Below, in pieces: positions 22,968-64,000 of a stretch of 64,000 nt of DNA. Under the pieces are notes generated by a model. It worked only from the letters and a program-made list of their open reading frames with translations. It made no database searches and had not been told where the DNA came from. Source of the DNA: Amphiscolops sp. MND2022 (Eukaryota); contig OZ076409.1 of assembly GCA_964187785.1 (NCBI GenBank), positions 30,010,001 to 30,074,000 of the forward strand, given 5' to 3'. Positions within the stretch are counted from its first letter, which is position 1. Each line of letters opens with the position of its first letter. The position numbers and the translations under genes were made by a program.

Positions 22968-24124
22968 TAATTCAAATCATCTACGAACAGCTTCAATGAA
23001 ACTCAAGCAAGAGCAACCCATCATGAATATCGAAAACAGCTTTCATCTTTCTCGAATTTGAGACTACAGAATGAGCCGGGCCATAAAATCCTCACAAGAC
23101 TTGCGCTCAAGCTCAGCGAGAAAACAGACATACGCCGATGTTGAAGGAAATATCAGAACGAACATTAGCTTTGTAGAACACTAGGTTGTAGATTTCTGAA
23201 ACGTCAGGTCATTTACGGGCCCAAATGTCGAGAGGTGCTTTATTGTTATATTTAATAAACCGAGTGCTTTATTGAATCAATAAGTCCGCCACTTGCTGAG
23301 AATTTTATTTCCGCGGAAACGTCCCTGACACTGCAAGTAGTCTGCAGCTGGCAGCGTATCGACAATGCTATCCAATTTTCTCATTAGTCTCTTGTCAACA
23401 CGGGTGACGTATTTAAGGCATCGCCCCCTCTGCTTTCGATGCGCTATGTCCTAAGGTTTAGGAGAGATAAGAAAGAGAAAATGATTATTCATACTTTTAC
23501 TATTTGCCATTTTATTTTCCACCTTAGCGCAAAAAGTACCTCACAGTAGTAATAGACGGGGGGGGGGTTGTTGTGCACGTTTTTGGCTCTTTTGAAAATT
23601 TTCGAAGATTTTCAATGCACGTTTTGGGCTCCCAAACCGAAAATTTTCCAAGTCAGAAAGGTCAAAAATCATTTTGTTTGAACTGTCAAATTTTGTATAT
23701 TTTATCACTCGGCTGTCAAATTTCATTTAATATACGTCAAAATTGATTTTTCTGCCTTTGAATAATCTCGACTCGGGAGCCCAAAAAGTGCAATGAGAAT
23801 CTGAGAATAATTTCGGCTAAAGAGCTGTAAACATGCACAAACATGCAGCCATACGACCGTGTTCATTGAATCTTAGCTACTTTAGACGTATAGTTTTAAA
23901 AAAAAAGAAAAAAAAAGAAAAACACTGTATTCCTTCATATAAAATATCTAAAAAGTAAACAAATATATGGAGGACAGTGTAAAACCGTATTATTAAAATA
24001 ATGGACAAAACGAAATATTGTATAAAAACAAATATTGAGCATTAAAATTTGACTACTTAAAACGATATTCACTCCAACATTTCTGACTATACTGAGGTCT
24101 ATCGATATCATTAATAAAACTTAT

Positions 24125-27100
24125 TTTGTACCGTAATATTGAATGATAGATCCAATATAAGTCCTATACGTCTATGTTCATTGAATCTTAGCTACTTTAG
24201 ACCTATAGTATGGTACTGTATACGGAAAGATTAATCGAATATAAAACCTATACGATCGTGTCAATTGATTCTTAGCTACTTCAGACCTATAGTATTGTAC
24301 TGTATATTGAAAGATCGATCGAATATAAGTCCAATACTATCGTGTTCATCGAATCTTAGCTACTTTAGAAATGTAGTAAAGGAATGTAATTTGAAAGATA
24401 GATCGAATTTAAGTCCTATACGACCGTGTTTATCGAATCTTAGCTACTTTAGACCTATAATATGTACTGTATATTGAAAGATAGATCGAACAAAGGTCCT
24501 ATACGGCTGCGTTCATAGAATCTTAGCTACTTTAGAACTATAGTATGGTACTGTATATTGAAAGAAAGGCCAAGCGATCGTGTTAATTGAATCTTAGCTA
24601 CTTTAGAAATATAGTATAGAAATGTAGTAAAGGAATGTAATTTGAAAGGTAGATCGAATTTAAGTCCTATACGACCGTGTTTATCGAATCTTAGCTACTT
24701 TAGACCTATAACATGTACTGTATATTGAAAGATAGATCGAACAAAGGTCCTATACGGCTGCGTTCATAGAATCTTAGCTACTTTAGAACTATAGTATGGT
24801 ACTGTATATTGAAAGAAAGGCCAAGCGATCGTGTTAATTGAATCTTAGCTACTTTAGAAATATATATTGAATCTTATATAGAAATATAAGACCGTGTTCA
24901 TCGAATCTTAGCTACTTTAGACCTATAATATGGTACTGTATATTGAAAGAAAGGCCAAGCGTAGGTCCTATACGGCTGTGTTTATTGAATCGTAGCTACT
25001 TTAGACCCATAGTATGGTACTGTATAATGGAACATTGATCAAAAATGAAACCCATACGATCGTATTCACTTAATATTAGCTACTTTAAACATAGTATGAT
25101 ACTGTATAATAAAAGATAAATCGAATATAATTCCTATACGGCTGTGTTCATTGAATCTTAGATACTTTATCCGTAGAGTATTGTACTGTATATTGAAAGA
25201 TAGATCGAATATAAGTTCTATACGAAAGTGTTCATCGAATCTTAGCTTCTTCAGACTTTTTAGTATGGAACAGTATCTTGAAAAATAGATCGAATATAAG
25301 TCCAATACTACCGTGTACATCGAATCTTAGCTACTTTAGATCTGTAATATAATACTATATATTGAAAGATAGATCGAATATAAGTCCTATACGAAAATGT
25401 TCATCGAATGTAAGCCCTATACGACCGTGTTCATCAAATCTTAGCTACTTTAGACCTATAGTATGGTACTGTATTTTGAAAGATAGATCGAACAAAGGTC
25501 CTATACGGCTGTGTTCACAGAATCTCCGCTACTTTACTCCTATTGTTTTGTACTGTAAATGGAAAAATAAATCGAATGTAAATCCTATACGAAAATGTTC
25601 ATCGAATCCCAACTACTTTAGACTTATAGTATGGAACTGTATATTGAAGAAAAGATCGGATATAAGTCCAATACGACCGTGTTCATCGAATCTTAGCTAC
25701 TTTAGAAATACAGTATAGTAATGTGTATTGAAAAATAGATCGATAAATAAGGCAATGCGACCGTGCTCATCGAATCCTAACTATTTTAGACCTAAAATAT
25801 GGTACTCTATATTGAAGGATAGATCGAACATAGGTCCTATACGACCGTGTTCATCGAATCTTAGCTACTTTAGACCTATAATATGTACTGTATATTGAGA
25901 GATAGATCGAACAAAGGTCCTATACGGCTGCGTTCATAGAATCTTAGCTACTTTAGAACTATAGTATGGTACTGTATATTGAAAGAAAGGCCAAGCGATC
26001 GTGTTAATTGGATCTTAGCTACTTTAGAAATATAATATGGTAATGTATATTGAAAGATAGATCGAATATAAGTCCCATAAGACCGTGTTCATCGAATCTT
26101 AGCTACTTTAGACCTATAATATGGTACTGTATATTGGAAGAAAGGCCAAGCGTAGGTCCTATACGGCTGTGTTTATTGAATCGTAGCTACTTTAGACCTA
26201 TAGTATGGTACTGTATAATGGAACATTGATCAAAAATGAAACCCATACGATCGTATTCACTTAATATTAGCTACTATAGACCTAGTATGATACTGTATAA
26301 TAAAGGATAAATCGAATATAATTACTATACGGCTGTGTTCATTAAATCTTAGATACTTTAGCCGTAGAGTATTGTACTGTATATTGAAAGATAGATCGAA
26401 TATAAGTTCTATACGAAAGTGTTCATCGAATCTTAGCTTCTTCAAACTTTTTAGTATGGAACAGTATCTTGAAAAATAGATCGATTATAAGTCCAATACT
26501 ACCGTGTACATCGAATCTTAGCTACTTTAGATCTGTAATATGATACTGTATATTGAAAGATAGATCGAATAGAAGTCCTGTACGAAAATGTTCATCGAAT
26601 GTAAGCCCTATACGACCGTTTTGTAGGTAGATTGCTGCGAGCATCGTGACTGAACCAAGGCTGAATGTTTTTCGGTTTGTGTCAGACAATCAACAAAAAG
26701 TGCCTAGTAACAAATTGTACATTGCGTCACTGATTTCACTACGCAAAGAAAAATACCCAGAGAACTGCAATCAAGCTATCAATTCTACCTACTCCAATAC
26801 GAGCAGCAGGGAGAAGGCTATGCATCGATGAGAGTAGAACGCGGACTGGTTCCCGGATGAGCGCAGGGAGCCTGAGTTTTGAAGATACGAAGATGTAGCA
26901 TCTCGACTGTTTGAATGAAAATTGAGTTTTGGAAGCTCAAAAGGAAACCTTGAAAGTAAATAGTCTCAGTGCTGAGTTTGGTCTTGCAGCTTTATACGAA
27001 TTCTTCCGACTTGTATACGGTCCTATACGGCTGTGTTCATAGTATCTCAGCTACTTTACTCCTATTTTGTACTGTAAATGGAAAAATAAATCGAATGTAA

Positions 27101-27430
27101 GTCCTATACGAAAGTGTTCATCGAATCCTAACTACTTTAGACTTATAGTATGGAACTGTATATTGAAGAAAAGATCGGATATAAGTCCAATATGACCGTG
27201 TTCATCGAATCTTAGCTACTTTAGAAATATAGTATAGTAGTGTGTATTGAAAGATGGATCGATAAATAAGGCAATACGACCGTGCTCATCGAATCTTAAC
27301 TATTTTAACCTGAAATATGGTACTCTATATTGAAGGATAGATCGAACATAGGTCCTATACGGCTCTGTTCCTTGAATCTTAGCTACTTTAGTCCGATAGT
27401 AGGTACTGTATTTGGAAAGATAGATCGAAT
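24125..27430 (+). repeat. 84-bp tandem array in the P1 left arm, interrupted at 26621-27017 by a displaced copy of arm-internal sequence
   Basis: Consensus gaaagatagatcgaatataagtcctatacgaccgtgttcatcgaatcttagctactttagacctatagtatggtactgtatatt; successive units start at 24141 and 24225. Confidence 0.97.
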
Positions 27431-27482
27431 GGTCTGGTGATATAAACAAACTGAAACTATGTTGACAAATCAAACGAACTTC

Positions 27483-27643
27483 CAATTAAGATATTGACCA
27501 ATATTTGTGGTTTATGTTCGGAAGAGAAAAGTTGTTTCACAAAGCATCGAACATTAGTGCAATCAGAAGAAATAACATTTGGTGGTGAAAACGAATTCAT
27601 CACACTCTGCCGCAAGTGCTGGAAACTCGAAAAACAAAACTAA
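27483..27643 (+). pseudogene. Thymidine kinase 3' fragment
   Basis: Reads IKILTNICGLCSEEKSCFTKHR...GGENEFITLCRKCWKLEKQN*. The 5' part is deleted relative to 57223-57842. Confidence 0.85.
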
Positions 27644-30600
27644 AGAAGAAATTGAGCATTTCAACTTCAATCACAAACACCTAATTAGCAACTAAGTGAC
27701 TCTGATTCTCAGGTGTAACCCGTGAAAAAAAAGATTCAATTTCAAACTTTTCTTGTCAGAGAACACATAATGCAAAATAGTTCAGTGAACATTTTTTTTA
27801 TTTCAGGACTTCGGAGCTTGAGCTAATTATTGCTTGTGGATGTTCAAGTGGTGAGGTGCAGTTTGTTCGTTATCTGTGCTATGGTTTTCTTTCAACACCA
27901 TTTTCTTTCATTGTTTTGGAAGTTTAAATATACTTGTGTCAACTCAGTGAATAATTCTTTTTTCGGTCTCTTGTGCTGCACAAGCAAGCAGTGAACTTTT
28001 TAAAAACTCGCGATAATGTTATTTTGACGAAAACTCGCTCATGTTCATCTCATTGAACTGTCAGCAAGTTTCAGAAAACTTCCGGCGCACACACCTGTGA
28101 CCATTTTCAAAACAAATCAAGTTAGGTTTTAAAACGAATGATTAAGGGTCGTCCGATTGTGCTGCCACGGGAATGTCTAATTTGCAATTTGATATCCAAC
28201 GTTCCCTTGTTTAATTTTTCGGTTTGCAGAAAACTGCCGTTACAATACTTGAGCGAATAGGTAAAAATTTCATCGCTAAATACAGCCTAATTTTCCAGGT
28301 AGGTTGCTGCGAGCATCGTGACTCAACCAAGGCTGAATGTTTTTCGGTTGGTGTCAGACAATCAACAAAAAGTGCATAGCAACAAATTGTACATTGCGTG
28401 ACTGATTTCACTACGCAGAGAAAATTACCCAGAGAACTGCAATCAAGCTATCAATTCTACCAACTCCAATACGAGCAGCAGGGTGAAGGCCATGCATCGA
28501 TGAGAGCAGAACGCGGAATGAAATTGAGTTTTGAAAGCTCAAAAGGAAAACTTGAAAGTAAATAGTCTCAGTGCTGAGTTTGGTCTTGCAGCTTTATACG
28601 AATTCTTCCGACTTGTATACAGCGATCGCACTGTATCAGAACAGTGGCTAAACTGGGATTGCTGTCTGTTCTGCTGAGCAGAACTTGAATTGCTGCTGCT
28701 GCTGTTGTTGGTGTGTATGATTGAATACGAAGAAGAAAAATTGACTTGCGACATCTGAATACTGGTTTGGAAATCCACAGGAAAAAAGTGAATTAATAGT
28801 CTTACAGAGTGACCAGGAATTTGTTGTTCTTGCTAGCACTTTCATTCTGAATCGTGAGATGAATTTTGTGAATCCTGGCGCAAAATTATTTTCATGAACC
28901 TTTGCAAACCATGTATTTTCAGTTGACGTCGACAGTGTTGAAAAAATTTTATGACAGTTTCCAGAAACATTTCTGAACGTGTACTCCATAAAACTAGGTC
29001 AAAAACAACCTACAATCACTTTTCCAAAGCCCGACTCCAAAACGGATTCTATTAGTATAGAAATTATTTCCCACAAACTATCGAATTTTTACCGTTTAAA
29101 CATTGTGCTTCTTGTGTTGATATTGCGTGCCCGGTAACGCTGAGTCGAAAACTTCAATTCAAGCAGGCTGTGTGGTCTGAGTGATTATTCCTGCAGCTAG
29201 ATACCATACTAATCTGAATAGTATTGAGCGATCGAATCACTGGGGTCACACTACTGTTTTGATGGGGCAATCGAAGACTAGTCGCTCATATCCTGAAGTC
29301 TTACATCAACTGCTTCGGGTTTGATTCATTACTTCACTGACAGGTTGCCGTCTCACTCATTGATGTGAAAGCGACTCCTTCATGGAAACGTGGCTCCGGA
29401 AGCAACTGACCAAAAACCAAACGACGTCGAACAAATTGTGACTTTCACGAAAGAGGTTTTTTGAGACTCCAAGTTGTTTTTGTAAAGCTGTTCAAATTTC
29501 ACATTTCTGTGCCAACCGTACCGTACCAACCCTACCGTACCAACCTAACTCCAAGCAAGTGGAGGCTAAGAGCACAGACTGGAGCCCGTTGAGCGCTCTT
29601 GGCCTCCATTTGCTTGGAGTTAGGTTGGTACGGTACGGTTGGCACAGAAATGTGAAATTTGAACAGCTGTACAAAAACAACTTGGAGTTTCTAAAAACCT
29701 CTTTCTTGAAAGTCACAATTTTTTCGACGTCGTTTGGTCTTTGGTCAGTTGCTTCCGGAGCCACGTTTCCATGAAGGAGACGCTTTCAGATCAATGAGTG
29801 AGACGGCACTCTGTCAGTGAAGAATTGAATCAAACCCGAAGCAGTTATCTGTAAGACTTCAGGAGATGAGCGACTTCGATTGTCCCATCAAAACAGTAAT
29901 GTGACCCCAGTTATTCGATCGCTCGATACAATTCAGATTAGTATGGTATCTAGCTGCAGAACTAATCACTCAGACCACACTGCCTGCTTGAATTGAAGTT
30001 TTCGACTCAGCGCTACCGGGCACTCAATTTCAACACAAGAAGCACAATGTTTAAACGGTAAAAATTCGATAGTTTGTGGGAAATATTTTCTATACTAATA
30101 GAATCCGTTTTGGAGTCGGGCTTTGGAAAAGTGATTGTGAGTTGTTTTTGACCTAGTTTTTTGGAGTACACGTTCAGAAATGTTTCTGGAAACTGTCATA
30201 AAATTGTTTCAACACTGTCGACGTCAACTGAAAATACATGGTTTGCAAAGGTTCATGAAAATAATTTTGCGCCAGGATTCACAAAATTCATCTCGCGATT
30301 CAGAATGAAAGTGCTAGCAAGAACAACAAATTCTTTGTCACTCTGTAGGACCATTAATTCACATTTTTTCCTGTGGATTTCCAAACCAGTTTTCAGATGT
30401 GCCAGTCAGGTTTTCTTCTTCGTATTCAATCATACACACCAACAGCAGCAGCAGCAGCAGCAGCAATTCAAGTTCTGCTCAGCAGAACAGACACAGCAAT
30501 CCCAGTTTAGCCACTATTGATACAGTGCGATCGCTGTATACAAGTCGGATGAATTCGTATAAAGCTGCAAGACCAAACTCAGCACTGAGACTATTTACTT

Positions 30601-31564
30601 TCAAGTTTTCCTTTTGAGCTTTCAAAACTCAATTTTCATTCAAACAGTCGAGATGCTACATCTTCGTATCTTCAAAACTCAGGCTCCCTGCTCTCATCCG
30701 GGAACCAGTCCGCGTTCTGTTCTCTTCGACGCATAGCCTTCTCCCTGCTGCTCGTATTGGAGTTGGTAGAATTGATAGCTTGATTGCAGTTCTCTGGGTA
30801 TTTTTCTTTGCGTAAAGAAATCAGTGACGCAATGTAAAATTTGTTGCTATGCACTTTTTGTTGGTTGTCTGACACCAACCGAAAAACATTCAGCCTTGGT
30901 TCAGTCACGATGCTCACAGCAATCTACCTGGAAAATTAGGCTGTATTTAGCGATGAAATTTTTACCTATTCGCTCAAGTATTGTAACGGCAGTTTTCTGC
31001 AAACCGAAAAATTAAGCTAATTGCAAACTCAAATTGCAAATAAGACATTCCCGTGGCAGCACAATCGGACGACCCTTAATCATTCGTTTCAAAACCTAAC
31101 TTGATTTGTTTTGTTGAAAATGGTGACAGGTGTGTGCGCCGGAAGTTTTCTGAAACTTCATACAGTTCAATGAGCTGAACATGAGCAAGTTTTCGTCAAA
31201 ATAACATTATCGCGAGTTTTTAAAAAGTTCACTGCTTGCTTGTGCAGCACAAGAGACCGAAAAAAGAATTATTTACTGAGTTGACACAATTGTTTTTAAA
31301 CTTCCAACTTCCAAAACAATGAAAGAAAATGGTGTTGAAAAACTATAGCACAGATAACGAATTAACTGCACCTCACCAGTTGAACAACCACAACCAATAA
31401 TTAGCTCAAGCTCCTAAGTCCTGAAATTGTTGACTGGACTATTTTGCTTTCTGTGTTCATTGACTAGAAAAGTTTGAAATTGAATCTTTTACTTTCACGG
31501 GTTACACATGAAAATCAGAGTTATTTAGTGTTTGTGATCGAGGTTGAAATGCTCCATTTCTTCA

Positions 31565-31754
31565 TTAGTTTTGTTCTTCGAGTTTCCAGCGCTTGCGGCA
31601 CAGTGTGATGAATTCGTTTTCACCACCAATTGTTATTTCTTCTGGTTCCACTAATGTTCGATGCCTTGTGAAACAACTTCTTTCTTCCGAACACATACCA
31701 CAAATAACGGTCAACATCTTAATTGATTCAACTTTGGGTAGGAGATTGAGAATT
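31565..31754 (-). pseudogene. Thymidine kinase 3' fragment fused to the satellite
   Basis: Reads ILNLLPKVESIKMLTVICGMCSEE..GGENEFITLCRK on the minus strand. Confidence 0.85.
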
Positions 31755-31756
31755 GA

Positions 31757-34132
31757 GATCGGTCGTATTGCCTTATTTATCGATCTATCTATCTTTCAAT
31801 ATACATTACTATACTATATTTCTAAAGTAGCTATAAACACGGTCGTATTGGACTTATATCCGATCTTTTTTTCAATATACAGTTCCATACTATAAGTCTA
31901 AATTAGTTAAGATTCGATGAACACTTTCGTATAGGACTTACATTCGATTTATTTTTCCATTTACAGTACAAAAAGATAGGACTAAAGTAGCTAAGATTCA
32001 ATGAACACAGCCGTATAGGAATTATATTCGATCTATTTTTCAATATGCGGTACCATACAATAACTCTGAAGTAGCTAAGATTCGACGAACACTTTCGTAT
32101 ATGACTTATATCCGATTTATCTTTCCTTTTACAGTACAAAACAGTAGGAGTAAAGTAGCTGAGATACTATGAACACAGCTGTATAGGACCTTTTTTTGAT
32201 CTATATTTCAATATACAGTACCATATAATTGGTCTAAAGTAGCAAAGATTTGATGAACACTGTCGTATAGGGCTTATATTCGATCCTTTTCTCAATATAT
32301 TGTTCCATACTATAAAGTAGCTAAGATTCGATGAACATTTTCGTACAGGACTTATATTTGATCTATCTTTCAATATACAGTATCGTATTATAGGTCTAAA
32401 GTAGCTGAGATTCGATGGACACGGTACTATTGGACTTATAATCGATCTATTTTTCAAGATACTGTTCCATACTCTTAAGTCTGAAAAAGCTAAGATTCGA
32501 TGAACACTTTCGTATAGGACTTACATTCGATTTATTTTTCCATTTACAGTACGAAAAGATAGGACTAAAGTAGCTAAGATTCAATGAACACAGCCGTATA
32601 GGAATTATATTCGATTTATTTTTCAATATGCGGTACCATACAATAACTCTGAAGTAGCTAAGATTCGACGAACACTTTCGTATATGACTTATATCCGATT
32701 TATCTTTCCTTTTACAGTACAAAACAGTAGGAGTAAAGTAGCTGAGATACTATGAACACAGCCGTAGAGGACTTTTGTTCGATCTATCTTTCAATATACA
32801 GTACCATAATATAGGTCTAAAGTAGCAAATAATTGAGGAACACGGTCGTATAGGGCTTTTATTCGATCTTTTTCTCAATATACTGTTCCATACTATAAAG
32901 TAGCTAAGATTCGATGAACATTTTCGTATAGGACTTGTATTTGATCTATCTTTCAAAATACAGTATCGTAATATAGGTCTAAAGTAGCTAAGATTCGATG
33001 GACACGGTAGTATTGGACTTATAATCGATCTCTTTTTCAAGATACTGTTCCATACTATAAAGTCTGAAGAAGCTAAGATTCGATGAACACTTTCGTATAG
33101 AACTTATATTCGATCTTTCAATATACATTACAATACCCTACGGCTAAAATAGCTATGATTCAATGAACACAGCCGTATAGGAGTTATATTCGATTTATCT
33201 TTCAATATACAGGTCATACTTTATCATACTAGGTCTAAAGTAGCTAAGATTCGATGAACACGGTCGTTTAGGACATATATTCGATCTTTTTTCCAATATA
33301 CTGTTCCATACTAGAAAGTAGCTAAGATTCGATGAACACTTTCGTATAGGACTTATATGCGATCTATTTTCCAATATACAGTATTATATTATAGGTCTAA
33401 AGTAGCTAAGATTCGATGAACACGGTAGTATTGGACTTATATTCGATCCTTTTTTCAAGATACTGTTCCATACTATAGAGCCTGAAGAAGCTAAGATTCG
33501 ATGAACACTTTCGTATAGAACTTATATTCGATCTTTCTTTCAATATACAGTACAATACCCTACGGCTAAAGTAGCTAAGATTCAATGAACACAGCCGTAT
33601 AGGAGTTATATTCGATTTATCTTTCAATATACAGTTTCATACTATGTCTAAAGTAGCTAATATTAAGTGAATACGATCGTATGGGTTTCATTTTTGATCA
33701 ATGTTCCATTATACAGTACCATACTATAGGTCTAAAGTAGCTACGATTCAATGAACACAGCCGTATAGGACCTTTGTTTGATCTATCTTTCAATATACAG
33801 TACCATATTTTAGATCTAAAATAGTTAAGATTCGATGAGAACGGTCGTATTGCCTTTTTTATCGATCTATCTTTCAATGTACATTACCATACTATATTTC
33901 TAAAGTAGCTAGGATTCGATGAACACGGTCGTATTGGACTTAAATCCGATCTATTTTTCAATATACAGTTATACTATAAGTCTGAAGTAGCTAAGATTCG
34001 ACGAACAGTTTCGTATAGGACTTATATCTGATTTATCTTTCTATTTACAGTACAAAACAATAGGAGTAAAGTGGCTGAGATACTATGAACACAGCCGTAG
34101 AGGACCTTTGTTCGATCTATCTTTCAATATAC
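31757..34132 (-). repeat. 84-bp tandem array in the P1 right arm (inverted)
   Basis: Reverse complement of the same consensus (aaagtagctaagattcgatgaacac...). Confidence 0.97.
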
Positions 34133-34550
34133 ACTTTTCTGAAACTTGCTGACAGTTCAATGAGCTGAACATGAGCGAGTTTTCGTCAAAATAACATTAT
34201 CGCGAGTTTTTAAAAAGTTCACTGCTTGCTTGTGCAGCACAAGAGACCGAAAAAAGAATTATTCACTGAGTTGACAAATATTTTTAAACTTTCAAAACAT
34301 CGAAAGAAAATGGTGTTGGAAGAAATCTCTGTAGTACAGAAAACGAATTAACTGCACCTCACCAGTTGAACATCCACAACCAATAATTAGCTCAAGCTCC
34401 CAAGTCCTGAAATTGTTGACTGGGCTATTTTGTTTTATGTGTTCATTGACTAGAAAAGTTTGAAATTGAATCTTTTACTTTCACGGGTTACACATGAAAA
34501 TCAGAGTTATTTAGTGTTTGTGATCGAGGTTGAAATGCTCCATTTCTTCA

Positions 34551-34740
34551 TTAGTTTTGTTCTTCGAGTTTCCAGCACTTGCGGCACAGTGTGATGAATT
34601 CGTTTTCACCACCAATTGTTATTTCTTCTGGTTCCACTAATGTTCGATGCCTTGTGAAATATCTTCTTTCTTCCGAACACATACCACAAATAGCGGTCAA
34701 CATCTTAATTGATTCAACTTTGGGCAGGAGATTGAGAATT
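34551..34740 (-). pseudogene. Thymidine kinase 3' fragment within a duplication of 31146 onward
   Basis: ORF 34551-34784 reads ILNLLPKVESIKMLTAICGMC...LCRKCWKLEEQN. It has the same satellite junction as 31754. Confidence 0.85.
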
Positions 34741-34742
34741 GA

Positions 34743-35700
34743 GATCGGTCGTTTTGCCTTATTTATCGATCTATCAATATACATTACTATACTATATTTC
34801 TAAAGTAGCTAAGATTCGATAAACACGGTCGTATTGGACTTATATCCGATCTTTTTTTCAATATACAGTTCCATACTATAAGTCTAAATTAGTTAAGATT
34901 CGATTAACACTTTCGTATAGGACTTACATTCGATTTATTTTTCCATTCACAGTACAAAAAGATAGGACTAAAGTAGCTAAGATTCAATGAACACAGCCGT
35001 ATAGGAATTATATTCGATCTATTTTTCAATATGCGGTACCATACAATAGGAGTAAAGTAGCTGAGTTACTATGAACACAGCCATATAGGACCTTTGTTCG
35101 ATCTATCTTTCAATATACAGTACCATATAATTGGTCTAAAGTAGTAAAGATTTGATGAACACTGTCGTATAGGGCTTATATTCGATCTTTTTCTCATTAT
35201 ATTGTTCCATACTATAAAGTAGCTAAGATTCGATGAACATTTCCGTATAGGACTTATATTCGATCTTTCTTTCAATATACAGTATCGTATTATAGGTCTA
35301 AAGTAGCTAAGATTCGATGGACACGGTACTATTGGACTTATAATCGATCTATTTTTCAAGATACTGTTCCATACTCTGAAGTCTGAAGAAGCTAAGATTC
35401 GATTAACACTTTCGTATAGGACTTACATTCGATTTATTTTTCCATTTACAGTACAAAAAGATAGGACTAAAGTAGCTAAGATTCAATGAACACAGCCGTA
35501 TAGGAATTATATTCGATCTATTTTCAATATGCGGTACCATACAATAGGAGTAAAGTAGCTGGGATACTATGAACACAGCCGTATAGGACCTTTGTTTGAT
35601 CTATCTTTCAATATACAGTATCATATTTCAGATCTAAAATAGTTAAGATTCGATGAGAACGGTCGTATTGCCTTATTTATCGATCTATCTTTCAATATAC
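34743..35700 (-). repeat. 84-bp tandem array, distal P1 right arm (inverted)
   Basis: Same consensus; it runs directly into the subterminal sequence catgtttacagctctttagcc. Confidence 0.97.
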
Positions 35701-42594: not shown

Positions 42595-42614
42595 ATCTTT
42601 TTCCGAGTTTCTCA

Positions 42615-47823: not shown

Positions 47824-48300
47824 TTTAACATGTAGAGCGTGGGGAGGGGGGTGTTCATATTTTCGGTAGTTTTTTGGGTTTCTCATGCCAATGATACGTT
47901 TCATCACATTTGTACCCTGACTTCCATTTCCCTGAATTTCCCCAGTCGAATCCGGGACTTGGCAAAAGTTTTTGAGAATTTCAACCCCCCGTGTTTAGCA
48001 CGGTCCCGTATAAAATCGAACTACTGTAATCAGAAACGTATTGATAGGAAATGGAAATACACAAAGTGTCATTTCTAAATCTGCCTCCATTGGGTTGGAG
48101 TGAAATATTTAGCGTATGTGTTAATAGATCCCATCCAAGAGACCAAAATTACACTGTGTTTCAGAAATTAAAGAGGTCTGATGTCAGTGAGTCATCAGTC
48201 CGTTGAAAGTTCTTCCAACAAGCAAAACATTTCCTGACAGCAAGTACCATTTATTCCATGTCAATGCATTTGTTAGTGCAATACTAGTCTTGCTGACATT

Positions 48301-50264: not shown

Positions 50265-50286
50265 ACTGACTACTCAGTGCGGAGAG

Positions 50287-52778: not shown

Positions 52779-53683
52779 CAGGGGCGGTTTCAGGGGGAGG
52801 GCTGGGTGGGTGGCAGCATTCCCCTTTAGGTAGAATGAACCGAGTTTGCTTACTTTTCCAATTTTAAACTGGTGCTCTCGTTCCGGTCCGCCCGGTTCCA
52901 CCAATGAAAAAGCTCGTTAGTAAATCGACCAACGTAACAAAGAATATTAACCTGGCTACAAACTTAACTTGGGAACTTTGATAGAGTTTATGAAGATTCG
53001 GTGGAGTTAATCGGGGAACTACGAATTGATAAATTACCTGGGTCCCGCAGAACACCTAGAAGCGGGACAACGGATGTTCATGATTATTACCGTCAAAAAG
53101 TGTATATTCCCTTTTTGGACTTCGTTTTAGCTGAGCTAGACAGGCGATTTTCTGCTCACAATGCTATGGCCATGAAAATTTCTGTTCTTTTACCAAGATT
53201 TTTTCAAGCGAACCAGCTACAGTATTCAGATGTGAAACCTATCGCTGAGTTTTACAAACAAATTCTCCCTTGTTCTTTGGAATCACTTGAAAGTCAATTT
53301 GAAACTTGGGTTCAACAATGGAGGGATATTCCTCTGGAAAACCTACCTCGTACAATAATGGCAACGATCGATGAGTGCAACAAGAACTTTTTGCCAGGAA
53401 TTTACTCTCTGCTTCAAATCTTCGCAACGATTCCTGTTCCTAGTGCAGAAGCCGAACGTTCGTTCTCAGCTCTAAAACTTTTGAAAACCTATCAACAATG
53501 CCAGAAGAGAGACTTAGCAGTTTGGCACTTGCTTATATTCATTCAGATTTAGTTATTGATGTTGACGATATCATAAATAGATTTGCGTCAAAAAATAGAA
53601 GGCTCAAATTCAATTAATTTTTTGCCCTTTTGCTGTTTTTGAAAATCCGCACTCCCGTTGAGAAAATCCTAAAACCGCCCCTA
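52779..53683 (+). mobile_element. hAT transposon deletion derivative
   Basis: Inverted repeats CAGGGGCGGTTTCAGG / CCTAAAACCGCCCCTA, with 8-bp target duplication gccccatg / gctccatg (7 of 8 match). Confidence 0.9.
53001..53617 (+). pseudogene. hAT transposase C-terminal (dimerisation) fragment
   Basis: YYRQKVYIPFLDFVLAELDRRFS and LLQIFATIPVPSAEAERSFSALKLLKTY, then frameshifted EERLSSLALAYIH. Confidence 0.9.
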
Positions 53684-54637
53684 GCTCCATGGGCTGTGAT
53701 CTAACTGATTGGCAGTTATTAAGTTCTGAGAAACATGATTTTCTCAAAACCGTCGCAAAATAATTGTTTTTAGTTACTGTTGTTTTTTAGTTCATTTTCC
53801 CCGGGGCTCAGGTAAATTACAATGTCTCACAATTTTTCGAATCTGCTAGTTTTCATTAGAAATCAAGTTTTGAATGGATTATAGTTTGATTCCTATTCAT
53901 CTTCCTTTTACATTTTCAATTGATACAAATGTTTTGGTCCAAATCAGGGATGTTAAATGTTGTATTTAAATAGTATTGAGGTCAGTAGTAAGGAAGGGGG
54001 GGGTTTAGAGCCAATCATGAATCCTCGAGAGGCCGTTAGAGCCAATTATGAATCCTTGATCCGTTAGAGCCAATTATGAATCCCTAATCTTAAAACATGC
54101 AAATTCTCAACGGCCGTAGGTGTCCTAGAGATCCCACGCCTAAAATATTCTACATCAGAAAGGTTAAAGTTCATTTTCACACATATGTCAAGTTTTGTTT
54201 ACAATGCCTTTTCTGACTTAGAATAATCTCTACTTAGGACCCATAAAAGTTCAATAAGAATGAGAATCGTATAATAATTTCAGCCAAAGACCTGTAAACA
54301 TGTACCAACTTTCTACAGTAGCATAAGATCGTTTTCCAAAAAACGTGTACCACAGAACAAATGCGCTATATCTGAATAATTGATGTTATATCCGAATTAA
54401 ATTTTTTCATTCGAGCGAGAATAAAAAAAATCAATTTTTTAATGGTCCACACACGATTTTTATAAATATTGGCAGTCATTCTACATCCAAAGGTGTTGCC
54501 GCATGAGCAATGGCATCAAAATAGTATACCTGGGATGTGAGAAACAGCCAAAACAAGACCAAAAATGACCAAAAAGCGACCAATTTCGGACTTTCTGATC
54601 ATCTCAAAATCTGCACACGCGATTCGAACGAAACTTG

Positions 54638-56670
54638 TTGAAAGATAGATCAAACAAGTCCTATACGACTGTGTTACTGAATGTTAGCAACTTTAGTCGT
54701 ATAGTATTGTACTGTATATTGAAAGATACATTGAAAAAAAGTCCTATACGGCTGTGCTCATAGAATCTCAGCTACGTTAGTCCTATATTATGGTACTGTA
54801 TACTGGAAGATAGATCGAATATAAGTCCTATACCACTTTGTTCATTAAATCTTAGCTACTTTGGACCTATAGTATGGTACTGTATATTGAAAGATGGATC
54901 GAATATAAAACTTAAACGATCGTGTTAATTGAATCTTCGCTACTTTAGGTCTATAGTATTGTATTGAATAATTGAATTTTGAAAGATAGATCGAATATAA
55001 GTCCTATACGACCGTGTTTATCGAATCGTAGCTACTTTAGACCTATAATATGGTACTGTATTTTGAAAAGTAGATCAAACATGAGTCCTTTACAGCTGTG
55101 TTCATTGAATCGTAGCTACTTTTGACCTATAATATGGTACTGTATATTGAAACAGTGATCAAATATGAAACCCATACGATCGTGTTCACTTGATATTAGC
55201 TACTTTAGACCTACCATAATACTGTAAATTGAAAGATAAATGGAATATGATTCCTATACGGCTGTGTTCATTGAATCTTAGCTACTTTAGTCGTATAGTT
55301 TTGTACTGTATTTTGTATCGAATATAAGCCCTATACGGAAGTGTTCATCAAATCTTAGCTACTTTAGACCTAATATATGGTACTGTATATTGAAAGATAC
55401 ATCGAAAAAAAGTCCTATACGGCTGTGTTCATAGAATCTCAGCTACTTTAGTCCTATAGTATGGTACTGTATACTGGAAGATAGATCGAATATAAGTCCT
55501 ATACCACTTTGTTCATTAAATCTTAGCTACTTTGGACCTACAGTATGGTACTGTATATTGAAAGATTGATCGATAATAAAACTTATACGATCGTGTTAAT
55601 TAAATCATTGCTACTTTAGACCTATAGTTTTGTATTGAATAATTGACAATTGAAAGATAAATCGAATAGAAGTCCTATACTACCGTGTTCATCGAATCTT
55701 GGCTACTTTAGAATTATAGTATAGTAATGCATATTGAAAATTAGATCTAATAAAAGTCCTATACGACCGTGTTCATCGAATCTTAGCTACTTTAGACCTA
55801 TATAATGGTACTGCATATTGAAAGATAGATCGAATATAATTCCTATACGGCTGTGTTCATTGAATCTTAGCTACTTTAGTCCTATCGTATTATACTGTAA
55901 ATGGAAAGATAAATCGAATATAAGTCCTTTACGAAAGTGTTCATCGAATCGTAGCTACTTCAGACCTATATGATACTGTATATTGAAAGATAGATGAACA
56001 AAGGTCCTATACGGCTGTGATTATAGAATCGCAGCAACTTTAGTCCTCTAGTATGGTACTGTATACTGAAAGATAGATCGAATATAATTCCTATACGGCT
56101 GTGTTCATTGAATCTTAGCTACTTTAGTTCTATCGTATTGTACTGTATATGGAAAGATAAATCGAGTATAAGTCCAATACTACCGTGTTCATCGAATCTT
56201 GGCTACTTTAGAATTATAGTATAGTAATGCGTATTGAAAGTTAGATCGAATAAAAGTCCTATACGACCGTGTTTATCGAATCTTAGCTACTTTAGACCTA
56301 TATAATGGTTCTTTATATTGAAAGATAGATCGAATATAATTCCTTAACGGCTGTGTTCATTGAGTCTTAGCTACTTTATTCCTATCGTATTGTACTGTAT
56401 ATGGAAAAATAAATCGAATATAAGTCCTATACGAAAGTGTTCATCGAATCATACTTACTTTAGACTTATAGAATGGAACTGTATATTGAAAATTAGATCG
56501 GAAATAAGTCCGATACGACCTTGTTCATTGAATCTTAGTTACATTAGAAATATAGTATAGTAATGTATAATGGAAGATAGATCAAATGTAAGTCAAAACG
56601 ACCGTTCTCATCGGATCCTAACTATTTTAGACCTATAATATGGTACTGTATATTGAAAGATAGATTGAAT
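54638..56670 (+). repeat. 84-bp tandem array in the P2 left arm
   Basis: Same consensus as the P1 arrays. Confidence 0.97.
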
Positions 56671-56895
56671 GGTCTGGTGATACAAACAAACTGAAACTAT
56701 CTTGACAACTCAAACTAACTTCCCATTCAAGTTGAACTTTCAAGTTTCCATTCATCCTAGTAATCAATATCAGCAAAAAATCACCTAACATTTCTACGTT
56801 GTGTATTGGAAGTGAAACAAAGGGATCTGGGAATTGATAAAACCAAACCTGACTCAAATAGAAACCGAACCGTTTCTATTATCATACCACTTTTT

Positions 56896-57178
56896 GCACA
56901 TGACAAAGTCAATGTGCATTGCAGTCCAGCTAAGAAATTTTTTTTCCACAATAGTCAACTTCATAATGAGAGCCTTTTAGACAAATGCCAAAACCCCTGA
57001 GAGATTCGAACCTGCAGCCTCCCGATTGCACGGCATAAGTGTTGACCACTGTGCCATAGGGACGTTAGTGAACAAAGTTGAACTGTTGAATATATACGCA
57101 TGCGATTAAAATAATATATATACGCATATTAAAATAATGTCTTCGTCATGTGTTGCGAAGCACCGCTTCGCCTCTGTG
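56896..57178. mobile_element. About 280-bp HINE-like insertion, present in the left arm only
   Basis: The empty site in the right arm reads ccactttttgacgataaac (minus strand, about 62363-62381). Subterminal inverted repeats are cacatgacaaag / cttcgtcatgtg, with a 3' hairpin gcgaagc-acc-gcttcgc. Confidence 0.8.
56993..57063 (-). ncRNA. tRNA-derived sequence (pseudo-tRNA or SINE head) inside the insertion
   Basis: Minus strand gtccctaTGGCACAGTGGtcaac...caGGTTCGAATCtctcaggggt shows A and B boxes at tRNA spacing; the stems are imperfect. Confidence 0.7.
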
Positions 57179-57222
57179 TTGACGATAAACGCTGTTGGGC
57201 GAAGTTCTGCAGCAACCCTGCA

Positions 57223-57842
57223 ATGAACAAATCCGGATCGATTGAAGCAATTATTGGCCCTATGTTAAGCGGGAAAACGACTGAGCTTCTCAGACGGGTC
57301 AAACGAGATAGTCATCGTCAAAAATCCTGCGTCGTGGTCAAATACGCAGGTGACTTGAGATACAGCTCCACGCATGTTGTCTCACGACGGGCAATCACTT
57401 GAAGCAATTGGGAGGGACATTGGCACTGGATGCACTTTACGAAAAAATGTCGCAATTTGACGTTGTAGGTAAGTTGTGGTACCTTGCTTTTCCATTCTTT
57501 TTATCTGAACCATTGCTCAGAAATCGTTTCAGGCATCGACGAAGGACAATTTATCGATGACTTTGTTGAAATGTGTGACCAATTGGCTATGGCAGGGAAA
57601 ATTGTCGTCGTCGGGGCACTGATTGGTAATCACCGCAGTGAGGGCTTCAAAAAATTCTCAATCTCCTACCCAAAGTTGAATCAATTAAGATATTGACCAA
57701 TATTTGTGGTTTGTGTTCGGAAGAGAAAAGTTGTTTCACAAAGCATCGAACATTAGTGCAATCAGAAGAAATAACATTTGGTGGTGAAAACGAATTCATC
57801 ACACTCTGCCGCAAGTGCTGGAAACTCAAAAAACAAAACTAA
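57223..57842 (+). pseudogene. TK1: TK1-type thymidine kinase, full length but frameshifted; GT-AG intron 57469-57532
   Basis: [59 protein letters not shown] and LCRKC; at least two frameshifts. Confidence 0.93.
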
Positions 57843-60800
57843 AGAAGAAATTGAGCATTTCAACTTCAATCACAAACACCTAATTAGCAACTAAGTGACT
57901 CTGATTTTCAGGTGTAGCCCGTGAAAAAAAAGATTCAATTTCAAACTTTTCTTATCAGAGAACACAATGCAAAATAGTCCAGTGAACATTTTTTTTATTT
58001 CAGGACTTCGGAGCTTGAGCTAATTATTGCTGGTGGATATTCAACTGGTGAGGTGCAGTTAATTCGTTTTCTGTACTACAGAGATTTCTTCCAACACCAT
58101 TTTCTTTCGATGTTTTGAAAGTTTAAAAATATTTGTCAACTCAGTGAATAATCCTTTTTTCGGTCTCTTGTGCTGCAAAAGCAAGCAGTGAACCTTTTAA
58201 AAACTCGCGATAATGTTATTTTGACAAAAACTTGCTCATGTTCATCTCACTGAACTGTCAGCAAGTTTCAGAAAACTTCCGGCGCACACACCAGTCACTA
58301 TTTTCAACAGAACAAATCAAGTTAGGTTTTGAAACGAGTGATTAAGTGTCGTCCGATTGTGCTACCACGGGAACGTTTGATTTGATATCCAACGTTCCCT
58401 TGTTTAAATTTTGGTTTGCAGAAAACTTCGCTGTTTAAATACTTGAGCGAATAGGTAAAAGTTTCATCGCTAAATACAGCCTAATTTTTCTGGTAGATTG
58501 CTGCGAGCATCGTGACTGAACCAAGGCTGAATGTTTTCCGGTGGGTGTCAGACAGTCAACAAAAAGTGCATAGTAACATCGTCACTGATTTCACTTCGCA
58601 AAGAAAAATACCCAGAGAACTGCAATCAATCTATCAATTCTACCAACTCCAATACGAGCAGCACGGAGAAGTCTATGCGCCGATGAGAGCAGAACGCAGA
58701 CTGGTTCCCGGATGAGCGCAGCGAGCCTGATTTTTGAAGGAAATAAGATATGGAGATGTAGCATCTCGACTCGTTGAATGAAAATTGAGTTTTCAAAGCT
58801 CAAAAGTAAAACTTGAAAGTAAATAGTCTCAGTGCTCAAAGTTTGGTCTTGCAGCTTTTAAGAAATTCATCTGACTTGTAGACAGCGATCGCACTGTATC
58901 AGAACAGTGGATAAACTAGGATTGCTGTGTCTGTTCTACTGGAAAGAACTTGAATTGCTGCTGCTGTTGTTTGTGTGTGTGATTGAATACGAAGAAGAAA
59001 AATTGACTTGCAACACCTGAACACTTTGTTGGAAACCCACAGGAAAAAAGTGAATCAATAGTCCTACAGAGTGATCAAGAATTTGTTGTTCTTGCTAGCA
59101 CTCTCAATCTGAATCGGGAAATGAACTTTGTGAATCCTGGCGCAAAATCAGTTTTCATGAACCTCTGCAAACCGTGTATTTTCAGTTGAGGTTGACAAAG
59201 TTGAAACAGTTTTATAACAGTTTCCAGAAACCTTTCCGAACGTGTACTCTAAAAAAACTTTAGGTCAAAAACAACTCACAATCACTTTTCCAAAGCCCGA
59301 CTCCAAAACGGAATTTAGTTGTATCAAAATTATTGCCCACAAATTATCGAATTTTTACCGTTTAAACATTGTGCTTCTTGTTTTGAAATTGAGTGCCCGG
59401 GAACGCTGAGACGAAAACTTCAGTTCAAGCAGGCAGTGTGGTCTGAGTGATTAGTCCTGCAGCTAGATAGCATACTAATCTGAATTGTATCGAGCGATCG
59501 AATCACTGGGGTCACACTACTGTTTTGATGGGACAATCGAAAACTAGTTGCTCATCTCGTGAAGTCTTACATTAACTGCTTCGGGTTTGATTCATTTCTT
59601 CACTGACAGATTGCCATCTCACTCATTGATCTCAATGCGACTCCATCGAAATGTGGCTCCTGAGGCAACTGACCAAAGACGGAACGACGTCGAAAAAATT
59701 GTGACTTTGACGAAGTCCGGTCTGCGCTCTTGGCCTCCACCTGCTCGGAGTTAAGTTGGCACGGTACGGTTGGCACAGAAATGTGAAATTTGAACAGCTC
59801 AACAAAACAAATTGGAGTCTCAAAAAACCTCTGCTTCGTCAAAGTCACAATTTTTTCGACGTCGTTCCGTCTTTGGTCAGTTGCCTCAGGAGCCACATTT
59901 CGATGGAGTCGCATTGAGATCAATGAGTGAGATGGCAATCTGTCAGTGAAGAAATGAATCAAACCCGAAGCAGTTAATGTAAGACTTCACGAGATGAGCA
60001 ACTAGTTTTCGATTGTCCCATCAAAACAGTAGTGTGACCCCAGTGGTTCGATCGCTCGATACAATTCAGATTAGTATGGTATCTAGCTGCAGGACTAATC
60101 ACTCAGACCACACTGCCTGCTTGAACTGAAGTTTTCGTCTCAGCGTTCCCGGGCACTCAATTTCAACACAAGAAGCACAATGTTTAAACGGTAAAAATTC
60201 GATAATTTGTGGGCAATAATTTTGATACAACTAAATTCCGTTTTGGAGTCGGGCTTTGGAAAAGTGATTGTGAGTTGTTTTTGACCTAAAGTTTTTTTAG
60301 TGTACACGTTCAGAAAGGTTTCTGGAAACTGTTATAAAATTGTTTCAACTTTGTCAACCTCAACTGAAAATACACGGTTTGCAGAGGTTCATGAAAACTG
60401 ATTTTGCGCCAGGATTCACAAAGTTCATTTCCCGATTCAGATTGAAAGTGCTAGCAAGAACAACAAATTCTTGATCACTCTGTAGGACTATTGATTCACT
60501 TTTTTCCTGTGGGTTTCCAACAAAGTGTTCAGGTGTTGCAAGTCAATTTTTTTTTCGTATTCAATCACACAAACAACAGCAGCAGCAATTCAAGTTCTTT
60601 TCTGCAGAACAGACACAGCAATCCTAGTTTATCCACTGTTCTGATACAGTGCGATCGCTGTCTACAAGTCAGATGAATTTCTTAAAAGCTGCAAGACCAA
60701 ACTTTGAGCACTGAGACTATTAACTTTCAAGTTTTCCTTTTGAGCTTTGAAAACTCAATTTTCATTCAAAGAGTCGAGATGCTACATCTCCATATCTTAT

Positions 60801-61711
60801 TTCCTTCAAAAATCAGGCTCGCTGCGCTCATCCGGGAACCAGTCTGCGTTCTGCTCTCATCGGCGCATAGACTTCTCCGTGCTGCTCGTATTGGAGTTGG
60901 TAGAATTGAGATTGACTGCAGTTCTCTGGGTATTTTTCTTTGCGAAGTGAAATCAGTGACGCAATGTACAATTTGTTGCTATGCACTTTTTGTTGATTGT
61001 CTGACACCAACCGAAAAACATTCAGCCTTGGTTTAGTCACGATGCTCGCAGCAACCTACCTGGAAAATTAGGCGTATTTAGCGATGAAATTTTTACCTAT
61101 TCGCTCAAGTATTGTAACGGCAGTTTTCTGCAAACCGAAAATTTAAACAAGGGAACGTTGGATATCAAATTGCAAATTAGACATTCCCGTGGCAGCACAA
61201 TCGGACGACCCTTAATCATTCGTTTTAAAACCTTACTTGATTTGTTTTGAAAATGGTCACAGGTGTGTGCGCCGGAAGTTTTCTGAAACTTGCTGACAGT
61301 TCAGTGAGATGAACATGAGCAAGTTTTTGTCAAAATAACATTATCGCGAGTTTTTAAAAGGTTCACTGCTTGCTTTTGCAGCACAAGAGACCGAAAAAAG
61401 GATTATTCACTGAGTTGACAAATATTTTTAAACTTTCAAAACATCGAAAGAAAATGGTGTTGGAAGAAATCTCTGTAGTACAGAAAACGAATTAACTGCA
61501 CCTCACCAGTTGAATATCCACAAGCAATAATTAGCTCAAGCTCCGAAGTCCTGAAATAAAAAAAATGTTCACTGGACTATTTTGCATTATGTGTTCTCTG
61601 ACAATAAAAGTTTGAAATTGAATTTTTTTTCACGGGTTACACCTGAAAATCAGAGTCACTTAGTTGCTAATTAGGTGTTTGTGATTGAAGTTGAAATGCT
61701 CAATTTCTTCT

Positions 61712-62330
61712 TTAGTTTTGTTTTTTGAGTTTCCAGCACTTGCGGCAGAGTGTGATGAATTCGTTTTCACCACCAAATGTTATTTCTTCTGATTGCACTA
61801 ATGTTCGATGCTTTGTGAAACAACTTTTCTCTTCCGAACACAAACCACAAATATTGGTCAATATCTTAATTGATTCAACTTTGGGTAGGAGATTGAGAAT
61901 TTTTTGAAGCCCTCACTGCGGTGATTACCAATCAGTGCCCCGACGACGACAATTTTCCCTGCCATAGCCAATTGGTCACACATTTCAACGAAGTCATCGA
62001 AAAATTGTCCTTCGTCGATGCCTAAAACGATTTTTGAGCAATGGTTCAGATAAAAAAATGGAAAAGCAAGGTACCACAACTTACCTACAACGTCATATTG
62101 CGACATTTTTTCGTAAAGTGCATCCAGTGTCAATGTCCCTCCCAATTGCTTCAAGTGATTGCCCGTCGTGAGACAACATGCGTGGAGCTGTATCTCAAGT
62201 CACCTGCGTATTTGACCACGACGCAGGAGTTTTGACGATGACTATAACGTTTGACCCGTCTGAGAAGCTCAGTCGTTTTCCCGCTTAACATAGGGCCAAT
62301 AATTGCTTCAATCGATCCGGATTTGTTCAT
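61712..62330 (-). pseudogene. TK1: Mirror copy of the thymidine kinase pseudogene
   Basis: ORFs 62151-62462 and 61858-62154 show the same motifs, the same intron and the same frameshifts. Confidence 0.93.
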
Positions 62331-62597
62331 TGCCTGTTTGCTGCAGAACTCCGCCCAACAGCGTTTATCGTCAAAAAGTGGTATGATAAAAGAAACGGTT
62401 CGGTTTCTATTTGAGTCAGGTTTGGTTTTATCAATTCCCAGATCCCTTTGTTTCACTTCCAATAGACAACGTAGAAATGTTAAGTGATTCTTTGCTGATA
62501 TTGATTACTAGGATGAATGGAAACTTGAAAGTTCAACTTGAATGGGAAGTTAGTTTGAGTTGTCAAGATAGTTTCAGTTTGTTTATATCACCAGACC

Positions 62598-63543
62598 ATT
62601 CAATCTATCTTTCAATATACAGTACCATATTATAGGTCTAAAATAGTTAGGATCCGATGAGAACGGTCGTTTTGACTTACATTTGATCTATCTTCCATTA
62701 TACATTACTATACTATATTTCTAATGTAACTAAGATTCAATGAACAAGGTCGTATCGGACTTATTTCCGATCTAATTTTCAATATACAGTTCCATTCTAT
62801 AAGTCTAAAGTAAGTATGATTCGATGAACACTTTCGTATAGGACTTATATTCGATTTATCTTTCCGTATACAGCACAATACGATAGGACTAAAGTAGCTA
62901 AGATTCAATGAACACAGCCGTATAGGAATTATATTCGATCTATCTTTCAATATGCAGTACCATTATATAGGTCTAAAGTAGCTAAGATTCGATGAACACG
63001 GTAGTATAGGACTTATATTCGATCTAACTTTCAATACGCAATACTATACTATAATTCTAAAGTAGCCAAGATTCGATGAACACGGTAGTATAGGACTTAT
63101 ATTCGATTTATCTTTCAATTGTCATTTATTCAATACAATACTATAGGTCTAAAGTAGCGATGATTTAACTAACACGATCGTATAAGTTTTATTATCGATC
63201 AATCTTTCAATATACAGTACCATACTGTAGGTCCAAAGTAGCTAAGATTTAATGAACAAAGTGGTGTAGGACTTATATTCGATCTATCTTCCAGTATACA
63301 GTACCATACTATAGGACTAAAGTAGCTGAGATTCTTTGAACACAGCCGTATAGGACTTTTTTTCGATGTATCTTTCAATATACAGTACCCTATATTAGGT
63401 CTAAAGTAGCTAAGATTTGATGAACACTTCCGTATAGGGCTTGTTTTCGATCTATCTTTCAATATACAGTACAATACTATACGACTAAAGTTGCTAAGAT
63501 TCAGTAACACAGTCGTATAGGACTTGTTTGATCTATCTTTCAA
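62598..63543 (-). repeat. 84-bp tandem array in the P2 right arm (inverted, shorter than the left)
   Basis: Reverse complement of the consensus. Confidence 0.97.
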
Positions 63544-64000
63544 CAAGTTTCGTTCGAATCGCGTGTGCAGATTTTGAGATGATCAGAAAATCCGAAATTG
63601 GCCGCTTTTTGGTCATTTTTGGTCTTGTTTTGGCTGTTTCTCACATCCCAGGTATACTATTTTGATGCCATTGCTCATGCGGCAACACCTTTGGATGTAG
63701 AATGACTGCCAATATTTATAAAAACCGTGTGGACCCTTAAAAAATTGATTTTTTAAATTCTCGCTCGAATGAAAAATTTTAATTCGGATATAACATCAAA
63801 TATTCAGATATAGCGCATTTGTTCTGTGGTACACGTTTTTTGGGAAACGATCTTATGCTACTGTAGAAAGTTGGTACATGTTTACAGGTCTTTGGCTGAA
63901 ATTATTATACGATTCTCATTCTTATTGAACTTTTATGGGTCCTAAGTAGAGATTATTCTCAGTCAGAAAAGGCATTGTAAACAAAACTTGACATATGTGT

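Follow-up and report, generated by a model that had tools for sequence, protein, structure and literature searches.

Two large palindromic elements, P1 and P2, lie within a 64,000-nucleotide stretch of the Amphiscolops sp. MND2022 genome (OZ076409.1:30,010,001-30,074,000, in the 1.07-Gb assembly GCA_964187785.1; hereafter the window), and both carry thymidine kinase (TK) sequence in their arms. The family to which they belong is very probably a non-autonomous, palindromic satellite of Polinton/Maverick elements. It is described as a satellite and not as a new class of transposon because its termini, and not its body, are common with autonomous Polintons. For the system as a whole, a Polinton-mobilised satellite that replicates via a snap-back or hairpin intermediate is the probable explanation; the hairpin intermediate taken by itself, which is deduced from sequence patterns, is held slightly less firmly.

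The complete copy is P2, which begins with AGTAGT, finishes with ACTACT and is bracketed by a perfect 6-bp duplication, GAGGTC. An earlier description of the window made from its letters (the sequence-only reading) does not mention the Polinton character of these ends, which was found on reading the ends together with the duplication. The first 198 bp of the left end are 85% identical to the end of a polymerase-remnant element (L069), and L067 matches at 92% over 146 bp. In self-comparison with the arrays masked, the core arms of P2 (57179-59715 versus 62374-59834) are 96.4% identical over 2,558 columns and the terminal arms (54179-54637 versus 64000-63544) 97.4% over 459, and P1 folds on itself over 28516-30641 with 92.2% identity. 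Both palindromes of the sequence-only reading are thus present; the 84-bp arrays lie in each arm where it had placed them, and the open reading frames (ORFs) it had called thymidine kinase match Pfam PF00265. The two arms of P2 differ at 59 of 2,484 sites (2.4%), by 13 array units and by one 282-bp insert, in an assembly that is gap-free across the element.

Forty-two family loci, fetched from search hits and many of them as mirrored pairs, form a non-random sample. Thirty-four are mirrored on either side of the centre (some briefly), six have mixed arms, and two are unreadable. Two ends are visible in 16 palindromic copies. In 11 of these (8,331-13,131 bp) the flanks are unrelated apart from a perfect 6-bp duplication next to both ends, where the chance of a single 6/6 match is ~3.5e-4. 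This bears out the earlier proposal that the palindrome itself is the mobile unit. The ends carry the 5'-(AGT)2 ... (ACT)2-3' motif of Polinton/Maverick elements, and the duplications have the Polinton/Maverick length; ends and duplications of this kind are the commonest vertebrate Maverick signature according to PMC8097293. An exact 18-base centre motif has 64 occurrences at 51 places genome-wide (control, 0). The family is larger than 51 loci, because P1 and several other fetched copies do not contain the exact motif.

Candidate helpers reside in the same genome. The terminal-variant pattern is found 146 times in forward and 183 times in reverse orientation genome-wide (control, 0), and several pairs spaced 14 kb apart enclose polymerase genes. 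Three autonomous elements of 14,053-14,245 bp each have their own 6-bp duplication. Two of them (L061/62 and L065/66) code for an A32 ATPase, an rve integrase, a cysteine protease and a PF03175 polymerase, and the third (L063/64) for ATPase, integrase and polymerase. An ORF in the third is also a lead towards a capsid gene: it is similar to double-jelly-roll capsid clusters (0.98), the family being assigned to 24% of members and the recognition score lying below the threshold. Satellite and autonomous termini are common to both, with 90.8% identity over 304 bp for P1 and L065 and 96% over 101 bp for L033 and L061. When the arms are compared with the three helpers by blastn and tblastx (the latter with six helper halves), matches are found at the termini only, so that the satellite is not a simple deletion derivative of these three: its array, TK, core and centre do not appear as the remains of an internally deleted autonomous body. 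Neither P1 nor P2 contains genes for polymerase B or a retroviral-like integrase, nor the ATPase, protease and capsid genes present in the helpers, in agreement with the earlier statement, upheld by ORF inspection and tblastx, that no transposase, polymerase or capsid ORF lies inside them. The ends and duplications point to mobilisation in trans by helper enzymes. Many Polintons across the genome have long open polymerase frames (93 matches, with 91 of 1906 candidates scored), and one Polinton (L068) contains a reverse transcriptase ORF.

The fold point is conserved across copies, and each palindrome amounts to an inverted duplication of one replicon end about this fixed turn. The stem GGAGGCCAAGAGCGC is common to all element centres compared. 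Centres of the commoner type (L034, L038) take up a branched fold with two arms, and the P2-type and P1 centres fold as a simple hairpin; fold z-scores of -9.5 to -20 are partly expected of any palindrome. The turn has a GC content of 54%, versus 39% in the core. A single turn is used by the TK family, a TK-less family and mixed-arm elements, though the cores of the two families differ by ~30%. The P2 spacer (59716-59833), taken by the sequence-only reading for a remnant of the P1 centre, is indeed 90% identical to the right half of that centre. On either side of the central stem, all centres compared have short direct repeats of the CCGTA/CCAA type (window 29505-29560), and these are possibly protein-binding sites. 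No match to a 25-base centre motif was found among viral contigs. In a search for a hidden core gene no frame has a synonymous excess throughout, one 120-base window showing 14/14; the core blocks conserved between families contain stops in most frames, and a short exon may remain.

The arms of 19 insertions (38 arms) were compared; the 136 insertion pairs considered omit the hybrids P1 and L027/28 and are non-independent. Trees of two core segments group the two arms of most copies as sisters, the nearest neighbour is the arm's own partner for 28 of the 38, and the median arm distance is 2.4% within an insertion versus 8.3% between insertions. Across the pairs, mirrored differences, present in both arms alike, number 13,673, versus 91 asymmetries in common; seven hand-picked close pairs have 0-1 asymmetries in common. 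Arm-arm differences within copies range from 0.5 to 7.5%. In the four closest pairs the mirrored differences (5-10) are fewer than the private arm differences (13-51), which suggests that conversion in place is slow and insufficient alone for the reset. Because asymmetries are not inherited despite this slow conversion, homogenisation would seem to accompany replication. These comparisons indicate that the two arms are brought back to identity between one insertion and the next.

A fold-back cycle would produce this pattern in the following way. A protein-primed polymerase of the helper would initiate at a Polinton end, and the nascent or displaced strand would snap back on itself at the central hairpin. 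The product would be a duplex of half length (5-6 kb), closed at one end and bearing a Polinton terminus at the other. A second round of synthesis through the turn would then yield a full inverted dimer with two Polinton ends, to be inserted by the helper integrase. The new copy would owe both its arms to a single arm, or else to a snap-back duplex that had undergone repair. The sequence-only reading had offered two alternatives, an integrated inverted dimer of a hairpin-ended linear replicon and a Polinton-mobilised derivative. These become one explanation: the element has the termini of autonomous Polintons found in the same genome, and the patterns in its arms are compatible with an inverted dimer made by way of a hairpin form; the hairpin replicon is the part that we infer.

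A second palindromic family has the same Polinton ends and turn and a core ~70% identical, with no TK and no 84-bp array. Its members are L074 (8,063 bp long, flanked by a perfect 6-bp duplication), L102/L103, L110/L111 and L082+L071+L083. The last of these has a 3.3-kb end-bounded piece at its centre, with mirrored flanks. The mixed-arm elements (L076/77, L078/79, L104/105 and L112/113, also L019 and L020) are ~12 kb long and have two unlike arms that meet at the turn, one of the TK family and the other containing a 337-bp array. Where it was read, the latter arm contains two open orphan ORFs that are 45-55% identical between L076 and L079; they have no convincing Pfam match and no Atlas match, with three relatives only.

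The TK gene consists of two exons and a 61-66 bp intron within the Gly codon that precedes IDEGQF. Open copies have the features of TK1 (PF00265), namely the P-loop, DEGQF and two zinc-binding cysteine pairs. At the otherwise conserved LDG(T/N/D)(F/Y) and KY positions, which we take to line the TK1 base pocket, the element TK has LIGNH and EF. A host-type TK1 (L080; G000:C12:58938000-58947000) has its first intron at the same codon position, and the element TK is 48% identical to its two exons and 41-49% to other TKs. The host-type gene appears to have a further downstream intron that the element gene does not. In the TK tree the element gene is on a long branch (3.89) and is unplaced, with unsettled bootstrap values. 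Taken together, the gene structure and sequence suggest that the element acquired an animal TK1 as genomic DNA, and that it did so long ago. Capture of the intron-bearing gene by a Helitron was considered and dropped, given the inverted ends and target duplications. No TK relatives were found among 23 pattern matches in viral contigs, and metagenome contigs contain three distant TKs (26-36% identity).

Both exons are open and the splice sites recognisable in 10 of 44 full-length TK copies; the 13 copies that failed the splice-site pattern were counted as non-intact, and some loci had been chosen by TK score. In the window the TKs are broken or partial in all four arms, and both of the P2 pair have a stop in exon 1. 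TK-breaking changes are mirrored between the arms of L031/32, L035/36, L090/91 and P2. One exon-1 deletion is common to two insertions, L035/36 and L090/91, and therefore TK-dead lineages went on moving; the gene appears dispensable for movement and not needed in cis. By analogy with TK1 biochemistry, it may once have supplied dTTP for element replication. The sequence-only reading was right that palindromes of this family are mobile; its account needs amending in that 6 of the 42 loci have mixed arms, the TK is dispensable and the superfamily is one already known.

Several observations weigh against the satellite account or parts of it. Five of the 16 two-ended copies do not have a perfect duplication (one 5/6, one 4/6, three none). 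A 200-N gap lies near the centre of 13 of the 42 loci and a contig end near that of three, so that in places the centre as assembled, or the close identity of polished arms, may have been created by the assembly. A half-length hairpin or extrachromosomal form is a prediction from assembled sequence. Recent selection on the TK has no significant support in three tests: omega is a suggestive 0.34-0.43 among intact copies (non-independent pairs), and non-significant at 0.55 (p 0.14) for variants in at least three insertions and at 0.82 (p 0.53) for six disjoint pairs. Three mixed-arm copies (L076/77, L078/79 and L104/105) have perfect 6-bp duplications and therefore moved as such, so that full palindromy is not required; what seems to be kept is the turn and the ends, with full palindromy optional. 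In 12 of 18 copies the differences between arms show over-dispersion (p<0.05), and 10 of the 38 arms are nearer to another insertion than to their partner. In addition, the left core of P1 (27483-28520) is 95.0% identical to the right arm of P2 (60840-61872) and 89.4% identical to its own mirror, which is likely the result of sequence exchange between neighbouring elements. Over-dispersion, stray arms and the P1/P2 likeness together indicate that patchy conversion or recombination acts too.

These last features would also be expected if the family were a conventional non-autonomous Polinton, Foldback-like in body plan, whose inverted repeats are very long and which is copied at full length by the helper and homogenised by chromosomal gene conversion with no hairpin intermediate. 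Ectopic exchange of the P1/P2 kind and the mobility of mixed-arm elements both suit this explanation. Against it, arms differ by as much as they do within copies while close insertions share almost no asymmetries, although slow conversion would hand asymmetries on to daughter copies; and a hairpin centre is conserved across families whose cores are ~30% apart. It is judged improbable, though it is the main competitor to the snap-back route.

Far less probable is that one arm is the mobile unit and that the palindrome formed later at each site by chromosomal fold-back duplication. In its favour, the arms within a copy are sisters, and in L031/32 ~680 bp of flank (L031:1762-2439 and L032) is mirrored outside both ends with no target duplication, as expected of fold-back. 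Here either a fold-back may have overrun the terminus or the scaffolding may have gone wrong at the central gap. The direct 6-bp duplications outside both ends of 11 of 16 copies, in unrelated flanks, mean that both ends were present at insertion, and they already largely refute the single-arm origin. Likewise, none of 10 loci chosen for an absent mirrored hit is a clean solo arm (they show deletions, gaps or mixed arms), and the fold point is conserved, so that neither the predominance of single arms nor the variable fold points that would have spoken against the sequence-only reading were encountered.

Equally remote is the idea that the mirror structure is an assembly artefact of long reads folding back at the hairpin: the 16 loci with a gap or contig end near the centre, the tandem centre copies in L027/28 and L106/107 and the fusion of arms of two subfamilies in L027/28 would fit it, but the flank would then be mirrored too, whereas observed flanks have only the 6-mer in common, and the gap-free P2 has arms that differ in sequence, array length and the 282-bp insert. 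The locus L081+L027/L028 has arms from two subfamilies (6.9% apart), three tandem centres and no target duplication, and represents either recombination at the centre or a misjoin; L027/28 and L031/32 may both be misjoins.

The features of P1, P2 and the adjoining host exon are listed below. P1 is a rearranged hybrid whose two ends belong to different subfamilies (left L065-like, right L039-type), and its target duplication is unreadable because the last ~35 bp of the right end are gone. The arm plan that the sequence-only reading gave to both copies applies to the palindromes, arrays and TK; the arms of P1, however, have only the 3' quarter to third of the TK each, and the element has internal duplications. 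The PLC-beta exon it placed before P2 is less certain, as the match to PH_14 (presumably the PLC-beta PH domain) falls under the cut-off.

Features of P1, P2 and the adjoining host exon in window coordinates
Feature	Position	Strand	Remarks
P1, rearranged hybrid palindromic copy	23545..35963	.	left Polinton end intact; final ~35 bp of right end absent
P1 left terminus, AGTAGT start	23545..23850	+	matches left end of autonomous Polinton L065 (90.8% over 304 bp)
P1 left-arm 84-bp array, ~29 units	24128..26606	+	
P1 second left array, 5 units	27020-27430	+	after duplicated core piece 26619-27018
P1 left-arm 3' TK fragment	27483..27651	+	98% to P2 TK
P1 left core (C1-C3)	27652..29451	+	no coding signal found
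P1 central imperfect palindrome	29452..29702	.	GC-rich turn ~29535-29635, 54% GC, fold z -12.7
P1 right core and 3' TK fragment (31557-31754)	29703..31754	-	
P1 right 84-bp arrays, 28 + 11 units (31787-34133, 34774-35701)	31784..35705	-	
Duplicated core/TK fragment between P1 right arrays	34135-34740	-	
P1 right subterminal region	35706..35963	-	96.6% to L039-type end
Host exon upstream of P2	52203..52283	+	PH_14 positions 23-43, E 0.001, below cut-off
Left GAGGTC target-site duplication	53978..53983	+	right copy immediately past 64194, outside window
P2, complete palindromic copy, 10,211 bp	53984..64000, extends to 64194 (194 bp beyond window)	.	
P2 left terminal region, AGTAGT start	53984..54637	+	
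P2 left-arm 84-bp array, 24 units	54638..56671	+	
282-bp dispersed repeat insert, P2 left arm only	56897..57178	.	not in right arm
P2 left TK1-type gene, two exons and 64-bp intron, broken	57223..57842	+	Pfam PF00265
P2 left core	57851..59715	+	inner ~1.3 kb ~70% identical in TK-less family too
P2 spacer, remaining right half of the central hairpin after deletion of the left	59716..59833	.	
P2 right core	59834..61703	-	
P2 mirror TK, broken as well	61712..62330	-	Pfam PF00265
P2 right-arm 84-bp array, 11 units	62597..63543	-	
P2 right terminal region, continuing to ACTACT at 64194	63544..64000	-	

The 282-bp repeat in the left arm of P2 (56897-57178) is present also in L011, L024 and L094. It has a tRNA-derived look by eye and is not called by ARAGORN or Rfam; ARAGORN found no tRNA in the whole window, and Rfam gave no match up to E 1 over 53900-60000. 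A 172-bp tandem repeat at 47314-47767 is similar to part of the subterminal region of P2. Another repeat, with three copies ~90% alike (36009-37507, 44528-46073 and 48299-50265), abuts the broken right end of P1. Elsewhere the window contains a duplicated block with a small inverted repeat at its start (1-3519), a Pao/Bel retrotransposon (Peptidase_A17, 15730-19301), a DDE_1 ORF (21867-22862), a gypsy-like piece recognised by eye (43368-44509) and, shortly before P2, a hAT dimerisation domain (52968-53552).

Among known systems, the satellite resembles Polinton/Maverick elements in its AGTAGT...ACTACT ends, 6-bp duplications and termini common with 14-kb copies (PMC8097293, 10.1101/2023.08.22.554363), and its size, 8-13 kb, is only a little below that of its helper. 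It differs in having no polymerase, integrase, ATPase, protease or capsid genes, and in an inverted repeat that takes in the whole arm (4-6.5 kb), compared with 0.1-1.5 kb in described Polinton/Maverick elements. Intron-bearing host-type genes inside Maverick ends are also described for nematodes, where, according to 10.1101/2022.07.12.499685, the cargo lies between the left repeat and the integrase of autonomous or decayed Mavericks. The satellite cargo, in contrast, is a nucleotide-salvage enzyme, mirror-doubled in an otherwise gene-less element. Foldback and Galileo elements belong to cut-and-paste superfamilies and have duplications longer than 6 bp; the satellite shares their long, internally repetitive inverted arms, but has Polinton ends with 6-bp duplications, always folds at one hairpin and carries cargo within its arms. 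Tandem repeats of variable number and a variable middle are further likenesses to the Drosophila elements, for which see PMC3573991.

The form of the satellite, an inverted duplication of one replicon end, is also that of certain protein-primed replicons. Palindromic terminal-protein DNAs of phi29 and the hairpin plasmid and inverted dimer of yeast pGKL1 are said to depend on a helper polymerase, with replication of a hairpin monomer having been proposed. Those derivatives are reportedly free laboratory molecules, whereas the satellite is natural, integrated and present in many copies, with subfamilies, a conserved turn and cargo. Self-complementary or snap-back parvovirus genomes are likewise reported to be mirror images about a turn formed by a branched, GC-rich hairpin; the outer ends of the satellite, in contrast, are Polinton ends. 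In the literature searched there is no wholly palindromic non-autonomous Polinton and none with a TK, although the 2006 founding paper or Repbase may describe one earlier. The founding paper reportedly lists non-autonomous Polintons. What this genome adds is the TK as cargo, a branched turn held in common and arms that can be interchanged.

A more speculative extension, which we regard as unlikely as it stands, is that a Polinton virus has a natural satellite system built of modules. What replicates would be the half-molecule of 5-6 kb, protein-primed at one end and closed by a branched hairpin at the other, and TK, TK-less and 337-bp-array/two-orphan-gene arms would be joined at one hairpin as homo- or heterodimers. 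Such a dimer would be of a size to fit the capsid of the helper. It would provide functions on the helper's side, nucleotide salvage for example, and, its genome being self-complementary, could do so with no synthesis of a second strand.

Polinton virions have not been observed, and replication and particle formation are still deduced from gene content, according to 10.1101/2023.08.22.554363. A palindromic satellite would preserve the replication route in its sequence, since resetting of the arms at each move is a prediction of a protein-primed, strand-displacing fold-back cycle, and half-length hairpin DNA is the simple molecule that such a cycle predicts. The sizes of the satellites, all under that of the 14-kb helper, bear on packaging. 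The family also shows that Polinton ends can capture and double an intron-bearing metabolic gene, and palindromic satellites account for a set of the assembly gaps in this genome.

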